DNA of 32,000 bases, from contig JBBIMK010000005.1 in the NCBI GenBank assembly GCA_037444445.1, forward strand, positions 1 to 32,000, given 5' to 3'. Below the pieces are notes generated by a model, which had not been told where the DNA came from, did not search any database, and saw only the letters and a program-made list of their open reading frames with translations. The position numbers were made by a program, and so were the translations under genes. Position 1 is the first letter of the stretch, and every line of letters begins with the position of its first letter. Source of the DNA: a bacterium (GTDB lineage Bacteria > UBP7 > UBA6624 > JBBIMK01). Shown one piece after another: positions 3,809 through 28,427 of this stretch.

Positions 3809-5182
3809 TTACAACTTCTCCACTTTCGGCGATGGAAATGGAATGGCATTCCGCAGGTCAAATATCCGGTCCGCACGCTCCTCAATACGCTTCCAGTCGT
3901 AGATGGAATGGGGAGTGGTGATTACGAGCAGGTCATAGTTTTCCAGCAAGCGATAAGGGAAGTCTTTTCCCTCGCCCATACTTTTCAGGACCAGCGAATT
4001 GATGCGGAGGGCGGGAACATAAGGGTCGTGGTAGTCTACGCTGGCGCCTTTCTCGTGAAGCATCCTCAGAATTTCCAGGGCAGGGCTCTCCCGGGTATCC
4101 GCCACATCTTTTTTATAACCCACACCGATGAGAAGGATGTTCGCATTTTTCAGGGGGATACCCGATGCATCAAGCAAATTGCGGATACGGGAGACCACAT
4201 AAGCAGGCATGGACTGGTTCACCGCATCCGCCAGAGCCAGAAAGCGAGGATTGTATTTCAGGGTTCTGGCTTTATACGACAGATATAGGGGGTCAACAGG
4301 AATACAGTGTCCACCGAGTCCTGGACCCGGGTAAAAAGGCTGAAAACCGAAGGGCTTGGTGGCTGCCGCATCCACCACTTCCCACACAGGAATCCCCATA
4401 CGATGGCAGAGAATTGCCACCTCATTTACCAGGCCAATGTTCACCGCCCGATAAGTGTTTTCCAGTAGTTTTGCCATCTCCGCCACGCGTGGGCTGGACA
4501 CCGGCACCACAACCTGGATGAATTGACGGTAAAAATGCTCCACCAGACTCCGGCAGGCAGGGGTTACACCGCTGACAATCTTTGGTGTATTCACAATGCC
4601 AAACTTCGGATTCCCCGGGTCAACCCGCTCCGGCGAGAACCCAAGATAATAGTCCTTCCCCACTCTCCACCTCTCATACTTTTTCCGCCTCTGACGGGCG
4701 CTGAGAATGGGAAGAACCACCTCCTCCGTGGTCCCGGGATAAGTGGTGGATTCGAGGATAATCACCTGACCGGGGTGAATCTCTCGGACGATAGCCTGAG
4801 TGGCTTGCAGGATGTAAGAAATATCCGGCTCTCGGGTTTTTGATAGTGGGGTGGGAACACAAATCAGAATCACATCCGCTCTGCTTAATTCAGAATACGA
4901 GGAAACTTTCACTTTTCCAGCCTTCACCAGAGACTTCAGGAGTTCTTCCGGCACATCGGGGGTGAAGGGAATACCGCGAGAAATTTTCTTCAGCCTCTCC
5001 CGGTCCGTGTCTACCGCGAGGACGGTGAATCCTGCTTTTGCAATTTCAGTGAGCAGGGGCAAGCCCACATAGCCTACCCCAATCACCGCCACCACCGCCT
5101 CCTTCCTCTCAATCCGGCGGAACAATTTCCTGTAGATTTTCAGGTGTAATTTGACATAGGGCTTTTTCCCCATCACTTTCAT
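3809..5182 (-). CDS. nucleotide-sugar dehydrogenase, UDP-N-acetyl-hexosamine (WecC/WbpA/TviB/Cap5O-type) branch
   Basis: 457 aa. It has the NAD-binding motif VAVIGVGYVGLPLL and the catalytic-Cys motif GPGLGGHCIPVDP, which is characteristic of this branch of the UDP-glucose/GDP-mannose dehydrogenase family. The true start may be an internal Met (MGKKPY...). Confidence 0.85.
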   Translation of the reverse strand: MKVMGKKPYVKLHLKIYRKLFRRIERKEAVVAVIGVGYVGLPLLTEIAKAGFTVLAVDTDRERLKKISRGIPFTPDVPEELLKSLVKAGKVKVSSYSELSRADVILICVPTPLSKTREPDISYILQATQAIVREIHPGQVIILESTTYPGTTEEVVLPILSARQRRKKYERWRVGKDYYLGFSPERVDPGNPKFGIVNTPKIVSGVTPACRSLVEHFYRQFIQVVVPVSSPRVAEMAKLLENTYRAVNIGLVNEVAILCHRMGIPVWEVVDAAATKPFGFQPFYPGPGLGGHCIPVDPLYLSYKARTLKYNPRFLALADAVNQSMPAYVVSRIRNLLDASGIPLKNANILLIGVGYKKDVADTRESPALEILRMLHEKGASVDYHDPYVPALRINSLVLKSMGEGKDFPYRLLENYDLLVITTPHSIYDWKRIEERADRIFDLRNAIPFPSPKVEKL

Positions 5183-5740
5183 TGTAGCACGATTCAGGGA
5201 GGGTCCTGACTTTCCGTCGTCAGAATCCAGTAAGGGCAGGTTACCCTGTGCTCATCCGCAAAAAGTAATGAGGTTCATTGAATCTTAGCACACTCTGGGG
5301 ACTGAACTCAAAAGTTCACCTTCCACTAACCTGTGGAAGTGTGCAAGCAATAGGAGGGCAGGTAGCCACTTCCTGTTCATCTTGTAGATGGGGAATGGAA
5401 AAAAAGAGGCAAAAATAGAAAAAGATTGTTTTTTTACATTTTCTTTATTCTTTATAACTGGTTGAAAGCCAGGGACTGAGCGATGTATAGGATGGTCAGT
5501 CAGTAGTGCCCCTGCACACGGGCAATTTTCAGGCTTTCTTCGCTCATTTTCTCTCCTTTTCACTGCAGGACTTTTCAGAACCGCCATTCAATCCCTTGAT
5601 TTTTCTGACAAAAAATCGTATTCTGAAGGTGATAAGAGATGACGAAAAGTCATCCTTCTTTCTTTTCGTGGTGGAATCCGGTAGGAAGATTTTCCTCAGT
5701 TCCTAAGACCTTAAGCAGGATGGAAAATTCGGGCAAATAA

Positions 5741-6364
5741 TTGGTAATCATAGTCGCCATATCCCTGATGGTGGGGTGCGAACTGGTAGAGGGTATAATT
5801 GGGTGGATTCATAGCAGGGAAGCATATAGGGGAAAGAAGTTCATAGACTCCTTCAAGGAGTGGTGTGAGAGCCACAAAGACCAAGGCTGGGAATATATCC
5901 CGCCCGGAGCAGGACAGGGTGCACGCTGTCACTTACCATGCTACCCGGATTTGCATTGCCCATTCTTGATATCTGAAGTCTACGCTCACTACGACGATGA
6001 TGGGGATAAAAAGTTTGAACCTAAGGGCAATGACGGAGCCCCTAACGCCGACGATGATGAAATCAAATGCAGTGAAGGTCCAGGTCCGATTGATCCTGAT
6101 GAAAATCCACGACTACCCTGTCCTTTTGTTAAGGTTAGCGACCTTCATAACGAATGTTCGACTCAAGGAGGAATCTGGCAGGAGAATGGCAATCATTATT
6201 CATGCTCCGGGGTTGGCTGGGATTACGCAGGTGTAGGAACTGACTTAAACAACGACGGCTTAATTAACGAGTTAGACGAGTGGCATTGCGAGACGGTAAC
6301 TTCTGAAGGATTACCCAGCGGCACAGTGGTGGATTGCCCGTGGGAAGGAATGGATGTCGAGTGA
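5741..6364 (+). CDS. hypothetical Cys-rich, acidic protein with an EF-hand-type Ca-binding loop; possibly a lipoprotein or secreted
   Basis: 207 aa with a TTG start directly after an in-frame TAA. It contains 11 Cys residues. It has acidic low-complexity segments (YDDDGDKKFEPKGNDGAPNADDDE). DLNNDGLINELD (nt 6242-6277) fits the canonical DxNxDGxIxxxD/E loop. The N-terminus MVIIVAISLMVGC is loosely lipobox-like but lacks a charged n-region. No SD is visible, so the start is uncertain. Confidence 0.45.
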   Translation: MVIIVAISLMVGCELVEGIIGWIHSREAYRGKKFIDSFKEWCESHKDQGWEYIPPGAGQGARCHLPCYPDLHCPFLISEVYAHYDDDGDKKFEPKGNDGAPNADDDEIKCSEGPGPIDPDENPRLPCPFVKVSDLHNECSTQGGIWQENGNHYSCSGVGWDYAGVGTDLNNDGLINELDEWHCETVTSEGLPSGTVVDCPWEGMDVE

Positions 6365-7382
6365 CAGAGGCCTGAACAACGAGCGCAGGATTTCTATCTT
6401 TTTCACGCTTGCATTTTTCTTATTTTTCTTTGAACCTCTTATAAGAGGGCTGCCGCTTTTTGTTCCATGTCGCTCTGTTCCACATTTTGTTGCGAAATTA
6501 TTTTCTACCTGCAGCGTTTATCCTTTCGCTCATATCACTGAACCCGGATTCGTTCAAGTTGGACTCTTCACTGTGCTCCCCTGGATAGCCTATCTTTTCG
6601 TCTTATATTCAGGATTGATAAGGCAAAGACCTTCGTGGAAAATCCAGGCTTTCCACCTTTTTTTATGGTTCATCTTTGCTATCCCTCTCTTAAAGAACCT
6701 CTTTAGTTTTATGGGTTGGTTCCTCGTGCGGCATATCCCTTACCGGAAGCACTCCTGGAGTCAATGGGTCTGGACAGTAAATCAGGCTGTATTGGGATTG
6801 GTGAAACAAGTGGATTATTCCCGGATTTTACAGGAGATAGATCACCTGCTGTGGTTCGTTTTTTGTTTGTTACTCTTTCAATGGTTTATGTTTGGCAAAC
6901 TCACGGACCTGGGATTTATCCGTAACCCGTTCCGAGTCCGTCTAAAATGGATAGTGGTTATTTTAGGAATAGTTTTTTTAGTTCATGTGATGACGGCAGT
7001 AGTCGGGCTTTATCTCCTTCGCCAACCCAAACCAGGTCCCCGGGAAACTGACTTTTTCTTTACGCTGAGCGGACCTTTTCTCCTTCTGGTGGGGGCATTT
7101 TCAGAACAGGTGATTCAGGTGTTTCTCTTTACCCATCTGGTAAAATGGATTCGGCCTGTGTTTTTTGCCTATCTGATCCCCGGTATCGTCAGAGCGGTGC
7201 TACATGCGGATTACTGGTTAGATGTACAGATAGATCCCATGCTGTCCGCTTCGATAATCGTCAGCAGTGCTATTGAACTCTGGGTGTTTTCGCGCATGCG
7301 AGATATCGTTCCACTCTGGATGGCTCATTTTATTTTGGATGCCATTCTTATCTCCCTCAGTTTTCTGCTTTACGGCACTTGA
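6354..7382 (+). CDS. polytopic membrane protein, CPBP (CAAX/Abi) intramembrane protease-like with degenerate catalytic motifs
   Basis: 342 aa and very hydrophobic, with multiple predicted TM helices. Its C-terminal third follows the CPBP motif order: SEQVIQVFLF in place of EExxxR, RAVLHAD in place of FxxxH, and HFILDAI in place of HxxxN/D. The ATG overlaps the upstream ORF by 11 nt. Confidence 0.55.
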   Translation: MSSDRGLNNERRISIFFTLAFFLFFFEPLIRGLPLFVPCRSVPHFVAKLFSTCSVYPFAHITEPGFVQVGLFTVLPWIAYLFVLYSGLIRQRPSWKIQAFHLFLWFIFAIPLLKNLFSFMGWFLVRHIPYRKHSWSQWVWTVNQAVLGLVKQVDYSRILQEIDHLLWFVFCLLLFQWFMFGKLTDLGFIRNPFRVRLKWIVVILGIVFLVHVMTAVVGLYLLRQPKPGPRETDFFFTLSGPFLLLVGAFSEQVIQVFLFTHLVKWIRPVFFAYLIPGIVRAVLHADYWLDVQIDPMLSASIIVSSAIELWVFSRMRDIVPLWMAHFILDAILISLSFLLYGT

Positions 7383-18454: not shown

Positions 18455-19048
18455 TCATTTTCCATTTAACCACCCACTTTCTTTTTTCCTCATCCAGCCC
18501 ACTACTTCCCTGAGGTTTTCTCTAATGCTGGCATCACCTGTTTCCCTGGCAAGGGTGATTGCAGAGGCTCTTATGTATTGAATATCCAATCTGTTACCGG
18601 AACGGATGATGATGGCTTTTATATCGGCTTTATCCATATCTTCAAATCGTGCAATCTTGAACACAATAATATCTTCAGCGGTTGCAATGGGCAGTTTCCT
18701 GCCGAAAAGTCGCACAGAAATCGCCCTCTCCACTGTTTGTCGGTCTATCGTATAACTCGCAACTCTCAAATCAACCGAGAACACCTTTCCAAACCTTATC
18801 TTGACCGGTAACAGGCGCTTAAGCCTGAGCACCATTTTCGGCTGGGAAGACTCTGTGATTCCGAAACCATGGGATTTTAGATTCCAGAGAAGTTCATTGG
18901 GGTCGGCTGGCAATGTGGCAATGACAACATCCGCATCCAGTGTGGTTCTCGGTCTTCCTAATATAGATGCGGCAATCCCACCGATGATGACATACCTGAT
19001 TTTTAGGCTTTGCAGGACAGTGTCAAGCTGGTGTATCATTTTTTCCAT
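18455..19048 (-). CDS. nucleotidyltransferase-fold protein (minimal NTase, DUF2204/DUF6036-like) with a C-terminal helical extension
   Basis: 197 aa. IRYVIIGGIAASILGRPRTTLDADVVI fits the pol-beta-superfamily signature hGG/S...G..R.T.D.D. A helical tail of about 85 aa follows. The family name is from memory. An alternative ATG at 19039 forms an ATGA overlap with the upstream small ORF. Confidence 0.6.
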   Translation of the reverse strand: MEKMIHQLDTVLQSLKIRYVIIGGIAASILGRPRTTLDADVVIATLPADPNELLWNLKSHGFGITESSQPKMVLRLKRLLPVKIRFGKVFSVDLRVASYTIDRQTVERAISVRLFGRKLPIATAEDIIVFKIARFEDMDKADIKAIIIRSGNRLDIQYIRASAITLARETGDASIRENLREVVGWMRKKESGWLNGK

Positions 19049-19218
19049 ACTTCTGCCAGCCTCAATAATATCTCGGTTCGCCTGGCCGCCCGGGCGATGG
19101 TCAGCCTCTTTAACTCCAGAATCTCTGCCCTCGCAATATCCTGATATTCATCTAACGGCTTTCTGCCGAGAGTCTTTCTCTTTGTTTTTTTTGTTCGCTT
19201 ATTCATCCTGATATTCAA
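19036..19218 (-). CDS. hypothetical small protein with a basic N-terminus and helical C-terminus; candidate partner or regulator of the NTase-fold protein
   Basis: The track ORF is 60 aa from a TTG start, and an ATG at 19206 would give 56 aa: MNKRTKKTKRKTLGRKPLDEYQDIARAEILELKRLTIARAARRTEILLRLAEVWKK. Its stop overlaps the start of the downstream 197-aa ORF. Confidence 0.4.
   Translation of the reverse strand: MNIRMNKRTKKTKRKTLGRKPLDEYQDIARAEILELKRLTIARAARRTEILLRLAEVWKK
19138..19150. repeat. copy A of an exact 13-nt direct repeat (atcctgatattca)
   Basis: The identical 13-mer recurs 67 nt away at 19205-19217. The two copies are read in different codon phases (DEYQDI versus LNIRMN), so the repeat exists at the DNA level rather than the protein level. 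Confidence 0.8.
19205..19217. repeat. copy B of the exact 13-nt direct repeat (atcctgatattca), covering the start-codon region of the small ORF
   Basis: See copy A. A degenerate third match (tctgatatacc on the minus strand) lies at about 19343-19353, over the putative -10. Confidence 0.8.
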
Positions 19219-19343
19219 TCGGGGTCACAGGTCATATCTGCCCCCCCGCCTCGTCTGCTGTTTGTGAAAGAAGGGGCATCCCATCTTTCCAATAGAACGA
19301 AGGAAAAACTTCACCTTTCTCTGATTCATTCTTGCCGATTTCA

Positions 19344-24865: not shown

Positions 24866-25630
24866 ATGCCCGGCATGTATTTTATCGGAGTGGATTTTCC
24901 TCTGCGGGATGGTTCCGCATCTGCAGGGCTGGCTTTCCTCCAGTTTGATGGCAAAGCCGCATCCCTGAAGGAATATACCACCCTTTCCTCTGTGGAGGAC
25001 ATTTCGCTATGGATACTGGACCGGTGCCGTTTTTTTGGCATCGTGGCGGTGAATGTTCCATACCGTTCCCCCCGGGGGGAAGCCCCCTTACGGCCAGCGG
25101 AGAAGCAAATGGCAGAGAGACTGGCTCCTTACGCCCCATCCAAATCTTCTAACAAAAACGCCTATCTCGGACATTCCCTGCGCCTTCAAGAACTTTTCCA
25201 GCAATTGAGCGAGTGGGAATTTGAACCGGACCCGTTTTTCCAGCCCAGAACTATCGTTCGCGCCTGGTTAGAGGTTTCATCCCAGGCTTCCCAGGTAGCC
25301 CTCTTCCAGTTAAAGAAATTCTTCACCCCCCCTCCGGGGGATAACCAACAGAGATTGAAAAAACTTCACGAATTCCAGAAGCAGATACTGGAGAAATTGC
25401 CCCGGGAGGACCCACCGCTATTGGCAAATGCTTCCCTTCTATCCCTGAGTGTGTCTGGAGCATCAACCAGAGGTTCAGCAAAGGGGGAAGCACTGGAGAA
25501 GGTTCTGAATGCAGTGCTGTGTGCCTACACCGGGCTTTACTACTGGTGGTGGGGCGGTTCCCGCTGCCAGGTCTTTGGCTCTGAATCAGAAGGCTACATC
25601 GTGGCTCCCACTCTCCCCAGGCCCCCCTGA
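24866..25630 (+). CDS. DUF429-like (RNase H-fold) hypothetical protein
   Basis: The track ORF starts at 24809 inside cca. I prefer the ATG at 24866 (MPGMYFIGVDF...), 8 nt after the cca stop. The motif order GVDF ... VAVNVPYRSP..RPAEKQM ... EVSSQAS ... KVLNAVLCAYTG ... GYIVAP resembles DUF429 as I remember it. Confidence 0.45.
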   Translation: MPGMYFIGVDFPLRDGSASAGLAFLQFDGKAASLKEYTTLSSVEDISLWILDRCRFFGIVAVNVPYRSPRGEAPLRPAEKQMAERLAPYAPSKSSNKNAYLGHSLRLQELFQQLSEWEFEPDPFFQPRTIVRAWLEVSSQASQVALFQLKKFFTPPPGDNQQRLKKLHEFQKQILEKLPREDPPLLANASLLSLSVSGASTRGSAKGEALEKVLNAVLCAYTGLYYWWWGGSRCQVFGSESEGYIVAPTLPRPP

Positions 25631-26292
25631 GGGTTCGGAACAATCTTATCCCACCAATGATTCTCCCTGAAAACATCAACTCATCGGATTACAACCCAAT
25701 GAGCGGGGGTGCTCTTCCTTCGTTAAAGCCAGAGCCTCAGGCACAACCCTATCAAGTTCCTTGCAATCAGGTATTGCTTTACTATCCCTTCCAATTCCCT
25801 CCTGATACTGTCATTAACTTTTTGTGGCAGTGGAGAATTGGTTTCCGCTAATAAAGGGTGAAAATGGGACAATACGAAGCAGGATATTCCCTGCACAAAT
25901 TTCGGCGATTTCATACGCAGAATTGACATTTCTCGTTTTATACGGTAAACTAATTTCACGCTACATATTTGCATCTGCAAAACAGGGAGATGAGACCCTG
26001 GAACATCAGGAGTGGGTAAAGACTTTTCGGTCAGAGCACGCATCTTCAGGAAGAAGCCATCAGAGAAATGGAAAAAGCCATTGAAATGGCAAAGGATGTC
26101 TTCCATCTCTGGAATAACCTGGATGCGGGAGCCGATGCCTCTGCCCCTTTTCACTGCATTTTTGAAATAAATATACCTCCTCAAGAGGCGAGGGTGGGTA
26201 AGAAGAATTTTCTATTTTCTTGACCACAAGAGAGGGTAGCAGTTAACACGGAATAGAGGTGCGCAACTCGGGTTCTTTCTTTAATATTGAGA

Positions 26293-26357
26293 TATAATAA
26301 AAGTGGAGGGAAAGGATGGGTGCGTGTGGAGTTTCATTGGAAGTAGCCTGAAAGGAG
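26293..26357 (+). promoter_or_regulatory. candidate -10 (TATAAT, 26293-26298) and strong SD (AAGGAG, 26352-26357) ahead of the ATPase gene
   Basis: gatataataaaag contains a perfect TATAAT in an AT-rich context, with no good -35. The aaaggag SD lies 10 nt upstream of the GTG at 26368. Confidence 0.35.
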
Positions 26358-26367
26358 AAAAGTAATT

Positions 26368-27639
26368 GTGCTGACTTACTTACGGATTAAGGACTATAAA
26401 AGTTTTCGGGATGTAGAGGTTCATCTCAAACCGCTGACTATTCTCATTGGAGCCAATGCGTCTGGAAAAAGTAATTTTTTAGATGCACTTCACTTCCTTC
26501 AGCTGGCAGCGACACACAAAAGCCTGGGGGCTACTTTTAAGGAGCATAGAGGCTTGCCATTTGAATCTGTTTTCTGGAGTAACACCGGACCAAAGGGAGA
26601 GGGAAGGTTTCATATAGAGGCTTGGGTAGAACTTTCGCCTCAGGTCATAGAAGATGTGAATAAAGAAATCCGACAATACCGAAGTAATGACAGTAAAAAA
26701 TCGCAATTTATTTATCATACCCACCTCTGTTATCGGCTCACTGTGGAAGTGGATGAGATAGGCGCAGCACGAGTGATGGAAGAAGAACTATATCCCATCC
26801 GCAAGGACGGTCAACGTAAAAAACGCAATGCCTTCCTGGAAACGAAAGGAGGCAAGATTCATTTGCGGATTGAAGGGCAGGCGCATCCCCGGTATATTGA
26901 TGCAGGTAGGGACCGAACCGTGCTGGGTTATGAAGACCTGTATCGCCCCCATTACCCTCATATCACGGCTTTTAAGGAAGAGCTTTCCCGATGGGCTTTC
27001 TTTTATCTGGAACCCAGAGTATTGATGAGGAAAGAAGAACCCAAAAAGGAAACTTACCTCATCGGTCCCCAGGGGCAGGACATCGCCTCCTTCCTGAACA
27101 CTTTAAAACATAAAGAAGAAAAGCGTTTTCATGCTCTGGAGAAAAACTTGCAGATTTTGCTTCCGTCAGTGTCTGGTGTGGAAGTGAGTCCCGATGAGGA
27201 AGGATTTTTACACTGGTACTTCGTGGAAAATGGAAAACGAGCCTCTTCGCGAATTTTGTCTGAGGGGGCGCTGAGGGTGCTGGGTATTCTTTCCATTGTC
27301 TCGGCTATTAAATCTAATACCTTAATAGGGTATGAGGAACCTGAAAATGGAGTTCATCCTCACCGCCTCAAGGACATTGCAGATATTTTTGAAAAGTCCG
27401 TGTTAGATAAAAACGGAAAGCCTTATCGGCAGGTCATTCTCACCACCCACTCCCCGAAGTTTCCTCTCCATTTTGATTACAGACCCAATCACCCTGTGTG
27501 TGATATTCTCGTGGTTTCCAAGAAAGAGGGAGTGTCTAAAATCACTCCTCTTGAAAAATTCGGAGATTCTTTTCCTATGTATAAGGAAACTACTTTAGAG
27601 AAGGCATTGGAAGAAATGGAGCAGGTAGGCATCGAGTGA
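26368..27639 (+). CDS. ABC-type / AAA_21-AAA_15-like ATPase (OLD/AriA/AbiLi-like ATPase component)
   Basis: 423 aa with a GTG start. The N-terminus MLTYLRIKDYKSFRDVEVHLKPLTILIGANASGKSNFLDAL contains Walker A GxxxSGKS (K34). Other motifs present:
- the signature-like LSEGALRVL
- Walker B LIGYEEPENGVHP
- the H-loop ILTTHSP
G+C is modestly lower than in the flanking genes (about 40-47% in the two 60-nt lines I counted). Confidence 0.85.
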   Translation: MLTYLRIKDYKSFRDVEVHLKPLTILIGANASGKSNFLDALHFLQLAATHKSLGATFKEHRGLPFESVFWSNTGPKGEGRFHIEAWVELSPQVIEDVNKEIRQYRSNDSKKSQFIYHTHLCYRLTVEVDEIGAARVMEEELYPIRKDGQRKKRNAFLETKGGKIHLRIEGQAHPRYIDAGRDRTVLGYEDLYRPHYPHITAFKEELSRWAFFYLEPRVLMRKEEPKKETYLIGPQGQDIASFLNTLKHKEEKRFHALEKNLQILLPSVSGVEVSPDEEGFLHWYFVENGKRASSRILSEGALRVLGILSIVSAIKSNTLIGYEEPENGVHPHRLKDIADIFEKSVLDKNGKPYRQVILTTHSPKFPLHFDYRPNHPVCDILVVSKKEGVSKITPLEKFGDSFPMYKETTLEKALEEMEQVGIE

Positions 27640-28250
27640 ACCTGCAGGGCGGAATTCTCGTATTCTGTGAAGATTCTGCTCAACAGGAACTTATGAAAGG
27701 AATTTTGGACAGAATGTTTGAAGATTATTCCTACCCTGTAGAAAAGTGGTTTCATCAACTCACGAAGAGGGTAAGATATAAGCGCTTTATCACAGAGACG
27801 CTCAAAGATTACTTGAAAAGAAATCTGGTAAGCCTTGTCATTATCGTAAGAGATACCAATTGTAGGAAAACGGCTGAAATAAAGAAAGAAACAGATGGAT
27901 GGTTCAAAACACTCCGAAAAAAATATGAGGAAGAATTTCCAGAACTTGTTTACGCTTTTCCCTCTCCCCATATAGAGAAATGGTATTTGCTGGATATGTC
28001 ATTCTGGCGGGACAAGGTAGCGGAGAGCCCTCAGCCTCCACCTCGTAAAGTGTGCAAAAAGGACTTTTACAAACAGAAATTACACGCACTCTGCTACAGT
28101 CCTCCTCGCAGAGGTGTAGAATATGGCTCTGATATAGGCCGTAACTTGTTTTCAGGTGCAACCTCCGCTGTCGCCGAGGATTTCCGACAGTTTTTAAAAG
28201 ACATCAGGGCTAAGAAGCCCTTCTTCAAGGCTCCTATTAGGGATAAATAG
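27636..28250 (+). CDS. small Toprim-like protein (DUF4276-type; compare DUF4435/AriB and RloB/AbiLii), predicted nuclease partner of the ATPase
   Basis: 204 aa. Its GTG start overlaps the ATPase TGA stop (GTGA at 27636-27639). An N-terminal beta-strand is followed by an acidic residue, ILVFCEDSAQQEL (E12). A central hydrophobic strand is followed by Asp, LVIIVRDTN (D73). Then comes SPHIEKWYLLD (E114, D120). The size and motif order fit my memory of DUF4276 (EGxxE ... D ... hEaWhL), a Toprim-related family. Confidence 0.6.
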   Translation: MNLQGGILVFCEDSAQQELMKGILDRMFEDYSYPVEKWFHQLTKRVRYKRFITETLKDYLKRNLVSLVIIVRDTNCRKTAEIKKETDGWFKTLRKKYEEEFPELVYAFPSPHIEKWYLLDMSFWRDKVAESPQPPPRKVCKKDFYKQKLHALCYSPPRRGVEYGSDIGRNLFSGATSAVAEDFRQFLKDIRAKKPFFKAPIRDK

Positions 28251-28268: not shown

Positions 28269-28427
28269 ATGGGGTGGGTGGGTAAGAAGAAGAAAAAGGA
28301 CCTGCGGGGACGCTTGCTGTTGAAAAAAACGGTGGTTATGAAAGACCGCCGTATGAAACGACTGAAAGCGAAAGAAAAAAAGAGGCTGGAGGAGGAAATC
28401 GCCCGGGCCACTGATAAAGGAGCCTGA
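28269..28427 (+). CDS. hypothetical 52-aa highly basic coiled-coil-like peptide (doubtful)
   Basis: It is below the track cutoff. My translation is MGWVGKKKKKDLRGRLLLKKTVVMKDRRMKRLKAKEKKRLEEEIARATDKGA*. It begins 18 nt after the Toprim-like gene. The SD spacing is poor, and A/G-rich DNA can yield such ORFs by chance. Confidence 0.2.
   Translation: MGWVGKKKKKDLRGRLLLKKTVVMKDRRMKRLKAKEKKRLEEEIARATDKGA

Follow-up and report, generated by a model that had tools for sequence, protein, structure and literature searches.

A divergent, stand-alone ABC ATPase–DUF4276-type gene pair related to the candidate anti-phage module HEC-01 and to Mad3-Mad4

INTRODUCTION

The question raised by positions 26,368 to 28,250 of a 32,000-nucleotide stretch of bacterial DNA (positions 1 to 32,000 of contig JBBIMK010000005.1, assembly GCA_037444445.1; the whole stretch is called the window here) is whether two overlapping genes, one for an ATP-binding cassette (ABC) ATPase and one for a small protein, form an anti-phage system, and whether such a system is new. 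An original prediction, made from the sequence alone, described the pair as a split module related to the OLD family, with a DUF4276-type, Toprim-like partner, and proposed it as an undescribed defence system. The architecture turned out to be already catalogued: the pair type corresponds to HEC-01 of PADLOC (10.1101/2024.01.29.577857) and to Mad3-Mad4 of the methylation-associated defence system (MADS), the 'MADS3-4' of PMC11464382. Nor had every DUF4276-type partner gone uncharacterised, as was also claimed, since deletion of mad3 or mad4 reduces defence in Pseudomonas aeruginosa (10.1101/2023.03.30.534895). In this report, we describe the window pair as a new, unusually divergent and stand-alone member of this candidate anti-phage module; for stand-alone pairs, a defence function is suggested by analogy and is unproven. 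We further argue that the region is, rather probably, a self-contained and horizontally acquired two-gene cassette of the HEC-01/Mad3-Mad4 type.

RESULTS

A predicted ABC ATPase of the OLD/PtuA/GajA/AriA clade

The 423-aa product of the upstream gene carries the ABC motifs that had been claimed for it, and the core residues of these motifs are invariant among 61 homologues: G28, N30, G33, K34, S35 and N36 in Walker A (GANASGKSN), S298, G300 and L302 in the signature (LSEGAL), E323-E324-P325-E326-N327-G328 in Walker B (YEEPENGVHP) and H361-S362 in the H-loop (TTHSP). Pfam assigned the protein to AAA_21 (4.8e-26) and AAA_15 (1.7e-22), and the top PADLOC match by far was the HEC-01A model PDLC04184 (5.2e-56, residues 1-365), with eight more HEC-01A models each below 1e-25. 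The next PADLOC matches were PDC-M07A, AriA (1.5e-26), AbiLi (1.7e-25) and mad3 (4.2e-23), followed lower down by NsnB (1.7e-18), Old and GajA, while the top match in NCBIfam was MAD3, at 130.1 bits and so below the equivalog cut-off of 420. Among PDB sequences, the 61-sequence ATPase profile found the class 1 OLD protein 6P74 first (1.2e-16), then PtuA, GajA and AriA (1.7e-7), and the same profile aligned with P2 Old from the signature motif through the H-loop (89%). Taken together, these comparisons identify the product of the first gene as a predicted ABC ATPase of the OLD/PtuA/GajA/AriA clade with intact catalytic motifs, and the description of the locus as a split OLD-like module, in which an AAA_15/AAA_21-type ABC ATPase is coupled to a small separate protein, is borne out.

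In the course of these searches, one PADLOC-DB model labelled HEC-01B (PDLC04144) was seen to match the ATPase (1.9e-20), and one labelled HEC-01A (PDLC04143) to match 17 relatives of the small protein; the A and B labels of these two models appear to be interchanged.

The 204-aa partner belongs to the DUF4276 family by transitive homology

A word-indexed search of 5.8 billion proteins recovered only two homologues of the 204-aa protein, a near-identical copy on a sister contig (L002) and a protein of about 30% identity (P0002). The latter keeps the I-I-F-x-x-E-D, D-x-N-C, PHIEKWYLLD and GVEYGS motifs and matches Pfam DUF4276 (PF14103) over profile positions 6-191 of 192, with 22.4 bits (E = 1.7e-4), below the gathering cut-off of 30.2 bits. 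A two-sequence profile, run exhaustively with HMMER against 1.84 billion representatives, then brought up 510 proteins, each about 200 aa long, with E <= 1e-3 (353 of these at <= 1e-10), which puts the size of the family at about 510 clusters (50% identity). All member-level counts given here refer to a 131-sequence sample of this family. DUF4276 was matched by 102 of the 131 (E <= 0.01) and HEC-01B by 88 (best 3.8e-12); mad4 matched 11, NCBIfam MAD4 12, Pfam RloB a single relative, and AriB also a single one, weakly (8.9e-4). The majority consensus of the family scored 37.9 bits against DUF4276, above the cut-off, and at E <= 10 this was its only Pfam match, with no other Toprim-clan family.

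Six residues are invariant across the sample (E12, D13, D73, E114, W116 and K146), among them the three acidic residues, E12, D73 and E114, that the original prediction had singled out. Eight more are near-invariant (C76, C140, H112, P109, P111, D120, Y145 and E162), of which C76, C140 and H112 could belong to a metal site or, for the cysteines, a disulphide. The family motifs read I-x-x-F-x-E-D, D-x-N-C, P-x-P-H-I-E-R/K-W-Y-L-x-D, Y-K and G-x-E-Y-G. Because relatives keep the N-terminal I-x-x-F-x-E-D motif in sequence comparison, the long GTG start of the 204-aa open reading frame (ORF) is supported; the automated call for the small gene on the sister contig uses an internal ATG that cuts this motif off. 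The window protein is an outlier of the family, with at most 39% identity to any sampled member, and is best regarded as a divergent DUF4276-family member by transitive homology, its membership being detectable for the family and not for the window sequence alone.

The partner's invariant residues are arranged like a predicted Toprim-type metal site

AlphaFold2 gave confident models of both the window protein (pLDDT, for predicted local distance difference test, 91.4) and a typical family member (pLDDT 96.6). Both have a beta-alpha-beta-alpha-beta-alpha-beta core followed by a helical region, and in both the invariant residues sit at strand ends: in the window protein, E12-D13 come right after the strand at 6-11, D73-x-N75 after the strand at 65-71 and E114 after strand 4. 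This is also the order in which Toprim motifs follow one another along the chain according to PMC12065111, where DUF4276 and RloB are put in the Toprim superfamily, and HEC-01B has been described as a TOPRIM-like protein that shares its metal site with BpOLD (bioRxiv 10.1101/2024.01.29.577857). Foldseek matches of the two models in the PDB were weak and fell on generic three-layer alpha/beta folds (lumazine synthase, PurE and LacI-type domains). We take these folds to be of the 2-1-3-4 alpha/beta/alpha topology class to which Toprim also belongs, and their recovery is consistent with a Toprim fold without being specific for it. In BFVD, the top match of the window model was a full-length 'RloB-like protein', below significance (E = 4e-3, TM 0.43), and the family profile gave only noise against PDB sequences at E <= 10. 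In the models, the partner's invariant residues are thus arranged like a predicted Toprim-type metal site; the fold itself was verified by neither Foldseek nor hhalign, and the Toprim assignment rests on the literature and on motif topology, no structural or profile test having been passed.

The pair is a conserved unit that mostly stands alone

Scanning one genome per species (185,579 species genomes), we found at least 573 loci of the pair family, patchily distributed among Chloroflexota, Latescibacterota, Planctomycetota, Binatia, Rhodothermales, Gammaproteobacteria and other groups, with none of their small proteins more than 33% identical to the window protein. The neighbourhood conservation proposed as a check was evident: in 80 of 81 loci, the gene immediately upstream, in the same orientation, codes for an ATPase homologue (35-43% identical to the window ATPase), and the sole exception is cut by a contig end. 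Junctions were measured at 74 loci, and in 66 of them stop and start share 4, 8, 11 or 17 nt; the distance matrices of ATPase and partner are strongly correlated (r = 0.92, Mantel p = 0.001). Judged from these comparisons, ATPase and partner co-evolve and behave as one unit.

The unit is found in two main settings. At 18 of 80 loci, its neighbours are an SNF2/ResIII-NOV_C helicase, a DUF1156 methylase and a DUF499 protein, an arrangement that we interpret as the Hma/MADS context from which HEC-01 was first described. The other 62 loci stand alone, with no helicase, DUF1156 methylase or DUF499 protein within 6 kb, and at 27 of these the neighbours are housekeeping or metabolic genes, with no recurrent defence family. 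The copy in the window, itself an outlier, is of this solitary kind and has no methylase in its vicinity. The two loci closest to the window pair, L001 (1670-2695) and L084 (2169-3440), have an N6/N4 DNA methylase gene (DPPY motif) directly downstream, which is a second kind of methylase association beside that with DUF1156, helicase and DUF499.

A further arrangement was seen at an Omnitrophota locus (L063, 2745-4572 on the - strand beside 4728-6600 on the + strand), where the family pair stands divergently, back-to-back with another ATPase gene of the same ATPase cluster (384 aa) and an ORF of 233 aa. A pooled neighbour scan contained one protein matching AAA_21 (6e-36) and one canonical DUF4276 protein (3e-55), placed at this locus by inference; if they belong there, paralogous cassettes lie side by side.

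The cassette was probably exchanged recently and is bracketed by direct repeats

Comparison of the window with its sister contig L002 suggests that the cassette alone was recently exchanged between strains. The flanks are 95.8-96.2% identical, a divergence (about 4%) from which about 80 differences would be expected between 26339 and 28274, and only 4 were observed: one synonymous in the ATPase gene, and N75D, I82M and P156L, all non-synonymous, in the small gene. The first of these (position 27858, codon 75; Asn in the window, Asp in L002) falls within the putative DxD/DxN metal motif. The edges of the near-identical block are the cassette ends, and its right end coincides with one copy of a direct repeat. 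The exact 16-mer core of this repeat, GGGTGGGTAAGAAGAA, occurs in the window only at 26192 and 28276, and a repeat of at least 16 nt arose in 1 of 500 Markov shuffles; the two copies bracket a 2,084-bp unit that comprises both genes and the promoter-like region. This repeat is decayed in L002, to about 16/21 (manual count). It may represent a target-site duplication or an att-like core of a cassette that has no recombinase.

Just upstream of the cassette, about 350 bp (25626-25979) cannot be aligned to the corresponding ~260 bp of L002, and the next ~360 bp contain several indels relative to L002, including 13 nt at 26167 and 8 nt at 26283, just upstream of the TATAAT hexamer. This hypervariable spacer had no Pfam, Rfam or tRNA match. 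An empty insertion site was sought and not found: relatives of the flanking genes were absent from JGI metagenomes, and the exact-protein index gave no more contigs.

Locus layout and gene context

The features of the locus are collected in Table 1. Both ORFs and their overlap were found exactly where the original prediction had placed them; the junction reads ...ATCGAGTGAACC..., with stop and start sharing the 4 nt GTGA, and this overlap makes translational coupling likely. The ribosome-binding site that had been proposed is likewise present. The TATAAT hexamer is real, yet there is no evidence that it is a promoter: it has no acceptable -35 element, was unreported by the promoter scan, and lies in a region whose 5 promoter-like sites are no excess over the 3.8 +/- 2.1 of shuffles.

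Table 1. Coordinates of the gene pair and its associated features in the 32,000-nt window
Feature	Position	Strand	Remarks
ABC ATPase gene	26368..27639	+	GTG start, 423 aa, OLD/AAA_15-AAA_21 type, HEC-01A-like
Partner gene	27636..28250	+	GTG start, 204 aa, divergent DUF4276/HEC-01B family, predicted metal-dependent nuclease
Ribosome-binding site AGGAG	26353..26357	+	10 nt 5' of the ATPase GTG, direct reading
TATAAT hexamer, possible -10 element	26293..26298	+	5' of the ATPase gene, direct reading
Left copy of 21-nt direct repeat, GGCGAGGGTGGGTAAGAAGAA	26187..26207	.	19/21 identical to right copy
Right copy of flanking direct repeat, GGGGTGGGTGGGTAAGAAGAA	28271..28291	.	21 nt past the stop codon of the small gene
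Near-identical block, window versus sister contig L002	26339..28274	.	4 differences in ~1.94 kb

The lower G+C content that had been noted was confirmed: the pair has 44.0% G+C against 49.8% for the window, and its G+C content at third codon positions (GC3) is 44-45% against 55-59% in four neighbouring genes. Of the proposed neighbours, the CCA-adding enzyme (PolyA_pol domains) upstream and DoxX downstream are as described, while the upstream 273-aa ORF that had been called 'DUF429-like' has no Pfam match. The window also encodes lipopolysaccharide glycosyltransferases, UDP-glucose dehydrogenase, TsaD, a PAS/GAF/HD-GYP sensor, DnaE, glucokinase, AhpC and a C39 peptidase/esterase; no methylase, helicase or DUF499 gene was found in its 32 kb, and no tRNA or non-coding RNA near the cassette.

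A 52-codon ORF for a very basic peptide (MGWVGKKKKKDLRGRLLLKK...; 28269-28427, + strand) starts within the right repeat copy. L002 has an annotated gene for it, with 5 of 52 residues changed, and it is absent from the other loci; its conservation being limited to the sister contig, we rejected it as a third gene of the module. Roughly 7 kb away from the cassette, a DUF6036/DUF2204 nucleotidyltransferase-like gene overlaps a 92-aa ORF in the precomputed L002 annotation (about 18455-19313, - strand), and these two may form a toxin-antitoxin-type pair.

DISCUSSION

A candidate cassette and how it may work

The accessory, mobile character of the cassette is indicated by the patchy occurrence of its loci, its low G+C and GC3, its near-identity to the sister-strain copy and its direct repeats, and a defence role of its relatives by their embedding in methylase systems, the N6/N4 methylase at L001 and L084, the requirement for mad3 and mad4 in MADS and the placement of the partner in the Toprim superfamily in the literature. 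By analogy, the pair is most likely an ATPase-controlled, metal-dependent nuclease acting against invading elements. On the pattern of PARIS, Gabija, Septu and MADS, an oligomer of the ATPase would bind and restrain the small nuclease and also do the sensing; on a cue given by an invading element, the nucleotide state of the ATPase would change, and the nuclease, activated or released, would cut nucleic acid, either DNA or tRNA, so that the invader is degraded or the infection aborted. Since there is no methylase, self would be told from non-self through sensing of the trigger and not through methylation.

Several observations weigh against this reading. The window partner by itself has no direct match in Pfam, PADLOC, NCBIfam or PHROGs (none at E <= 1 in Pfam and PADLOC), the DUF4276, HEC-01B, RloB, DUF4435 and Toprim models included, nor does it match MAD4 or AriB; the Pfam and PADLOC checks that had been proposed thus recognised the ATPase and missed the partner, for which 'DUF4276-type' holds at the level of the family. 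Foldseek returned nothing from the PDB at E < 1e-3 for either partner model and no Toprim nuclease among the top 50, and hhalign gave the 131-sequence partner profile a probability of 0.2% against P2 Old, with a single sequence as template. The second position of the expected DxD is Asn in the window protein and in 114 of 131 relatives, and Asp in 17 and in L002. The window copy has peculiarities of its own. A C-terminal tail, R-I/L-L/M-R-G-D-F/Y-D/G-A/G, overlaps the partner start in 58 of 60 related ATPases and at L001; the window ATPase ends ...ALEEMEQVGIE (27616-27639) and has no RGD tail in any frame. Its partner also lacks the glycine-rich loop after strand 2 (residues 42-47; LTKRVRYK versus R-G-H/G-G-R/K-V in the family), and loss of the tail or the loop could impair coupling between ATPase and partner; across the pairs, the window is the only clean double loss, a single case. 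Defence islands were rejected as the setting of the pair, none being found in the window or at the 27 other stand-alone loci. Carriage by phages or plasmids was likewise rejected within the collections searched: 72,556 plasmids, 50,697 phages and 2.9 million viral contigs yielded no member of the family. Finally, HEC-01 alone did not protect E. coli against the phages tested (bioRxiv 10.1101/2024.01.29.577857), and no defence phenotype is known for the ATPase-DUF4276 pair type alone.

Other readings of the pair

The main rival to a self-sufficient cassette sees the pair as a restriction arm that works only within a methylation-based system (Hma/MADS or type III-like restriction-modification) and that, once orphaned, is either inert or serves a distant system. 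In MADS, the methylase gene mad5 cannot be deleted unless mad2 or mad3 is removed as well (10.1101/2023.03.30.534895), which indicates that the Mad3 ATPase takes part in an attack on unmethylated self DNA, and an orphaned arm would fit the failure of HEC-01 on its own, the position of the closest relatives directly upstream of an N6/N4 methylase, the 18 of 80 loci within Hma-type systems and the missing tail of the window ATPase. However, 62 of 80 loci lack helicase, DUF1156 methylase and DUF499 genes within 6 kb, 27 of them have housekeeping neighbours, and stand-alone copies, that of the window included, keep all catalytic residues. A nuclease arm that had no methylase should prove toxic or be lost; moreover, MADS detection requires MAD6, MAD7 and MAD8 and treats MAD3 and MAD4, not reliably detected everywhere, as accessory (10.1101/2023.03.30.534895), which suggests a separable module. 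We therefore regard the orphaned arm as a serious contender that is nonetheless unlikely. The same tight translational coupling and co-evolution could also mark a selfish, toxin-antitoxin-like addiction cassette, in which the ATPase holds a toxic nuclease in check and costly loss keeps the cassette in place, or a pair that processes nucleic acid outside defence. The recent cassette-limited exchange with its flanking repeats, the lack of association with defence islands and the absence of the family from the phages and plasmids searched would suit this idea; but there is no evidence of toxicity, the characterised relatives of the ATPase clade (OLD, Gabija, PARIS, Septu, AbiL and MADS) are all anti-phage, recurrent embedding in methylase-containing systems is a defence context, and the patchy distribution speaks against a housekeeping role. 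It seems to us distinctly improbable.

A more local possibility is that the window copy has been inactivated and is drifting. Its partner, an outlier with no more than 39% identity to sampled relatives, is missed by all hidden Markov models, both the RGD tail and the glycine loop are lost, and the three small-gene differences from L002 are all non-synonymous, one of them (N75D) in the metal motif. Yet both ORFs are intact and full length, with ribosome-binding site and overlap kept, the invariant catalytic residues of both proteins are all retained and the partner was modelled with confidence (pLDDT 91.4); at position 75, the family itself has either N or D (114 versus 17), and four substitutions are too few for inferring relaxed selection. 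A decaying remnant is, in our judgement, very improbable. We return, then, to the self-contained cassette of the HEC-01/Mad3-Mad4 type. In a bolder form, which we put forward tentatively and think unlikely to hold in full, the stand-alone DUF4276 pairs (about three quarters of the sampled loci) would be an autonomous, methylation-independent defence or abortive-infection system of PARIS-like logic with three differences: a catalytic centre unlike canonical Toprim, of E-D, D-x-N-C, P-H-I-E-x-W and K plus two near-invariant cysteines; a fold with no detectable solved relative; and spread as a 2.1-kb recombinase-less unit that inserts among the housekeeping genes of uncultured bacteria from the environment, duplicating 16-21 bp of its target. 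On this view, a further variant, without RGD tail and glycine loop, would be found in the window lineage.

Implications

A widespread family, with at least 573 loci in many phyla, thus has members whose effector gene is missed by Pfam, NCBIfam, PADLOC and PHROGs alike, and with the effector undetected, automated defence annotation would probably call no complete system at the window locus. The HEC-01B and DUF4276 models could be extended with the 131-sequence family profile and the signature motifs of the family. Since most members are solitary and methylase-free, one may ask how self and non-self are distinguished by an ATPase-controlled nuclease outside MADS and Hma, a question for which solitary pairs are simple two-gene constructs, and the cassette-limited identity and flanking repeats hint at how small defence cassettes might move without a recombinase.

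Comparison with known systems

The closest counterpart is HEC-01, the 'Hma-embedded candidate 01' of PADLOC, an ABC ATPase with a TOPRIM-like protein (Payne et al., bioRxiv 10.1101/2024.01.29.577857). It consists of the same two genes, adjacent, co-oriented and with the ATPase first; the window ATPase matches HEC-01A, 88 of 131 partner relatives match HEC-01B, and 18 of 80 related loci are embedded in helicase/methylase/DUF499 systems. The window copy differs in lying outside any Hma system, in its missing ATPase tail and in the lack of a HEC-01B match for its partner, so that the PADLOC models would probably call no complete HEC-01. MADS, described as an eight-gene system of P. aeruginosa SMC4386 (bioRxiv 10.1101/2023.03.30.534895), contains in Mad3-Mad4 the same succession of an AAA_15/21 ABC ATPase and a DUF4276 protein, and MAD3 is the only substantial NCBIfam match of the window ATPase; its score is nevertheless 130 versus 420 bits, the partner does not match MAD4, and the window has no MAD6-8 or methylase.

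The PARIS paper groups AbiL and 'MADS3-4' with systems in which an ABC ATPase is combined with a TOPRIM protein (PMC11464382), and several of their relatives share parts of the present architecture. AbiL is likewise made up of two genes, an AbiLi ATPase, which the window ATPase matches (1.7e-25), and a small RloB-like AbiLii; the RloB similarity of the window partner is below significance, however, and its ATPase is much closer to HEC-01A than to AbiLi. In the OLD family (P2 Old, 6P74 and GajA), the ATPase is homologous and 6P74 is the best solved relative, but ATPase and Toprim are fused in one chain, whereas the window has separate, frame-shifted ORFs, and neither Foldseek nor hhalign detected similarity of the partner to the Old Toprim domain. 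Menshen, which comprises NsnA, NsnB and NsnC, also pairs an ABC ATPase with an effector that can be DUF4276, here as a C-terminal domain of NsnC (PMC12065111); the window ATPase matches NsnB, while the three-component system differs from the window pair, at which no NsnA-like gene is present. PARIS differs in that AriB is a DUF4435 protein and the window partner is DUF4276-type, and in that PARIS is often encoded in viral genomes, whereas the pair family was not found on the phages, plasmids and viral contigs searched. It resembles the window pair in splitting ATPase and small nuclease into adjacent, co-evolving genes, and the window ATPase matches AriA; by analogy, PARIS is the best mechanistic template for a scaffold-and-release model of the pair.

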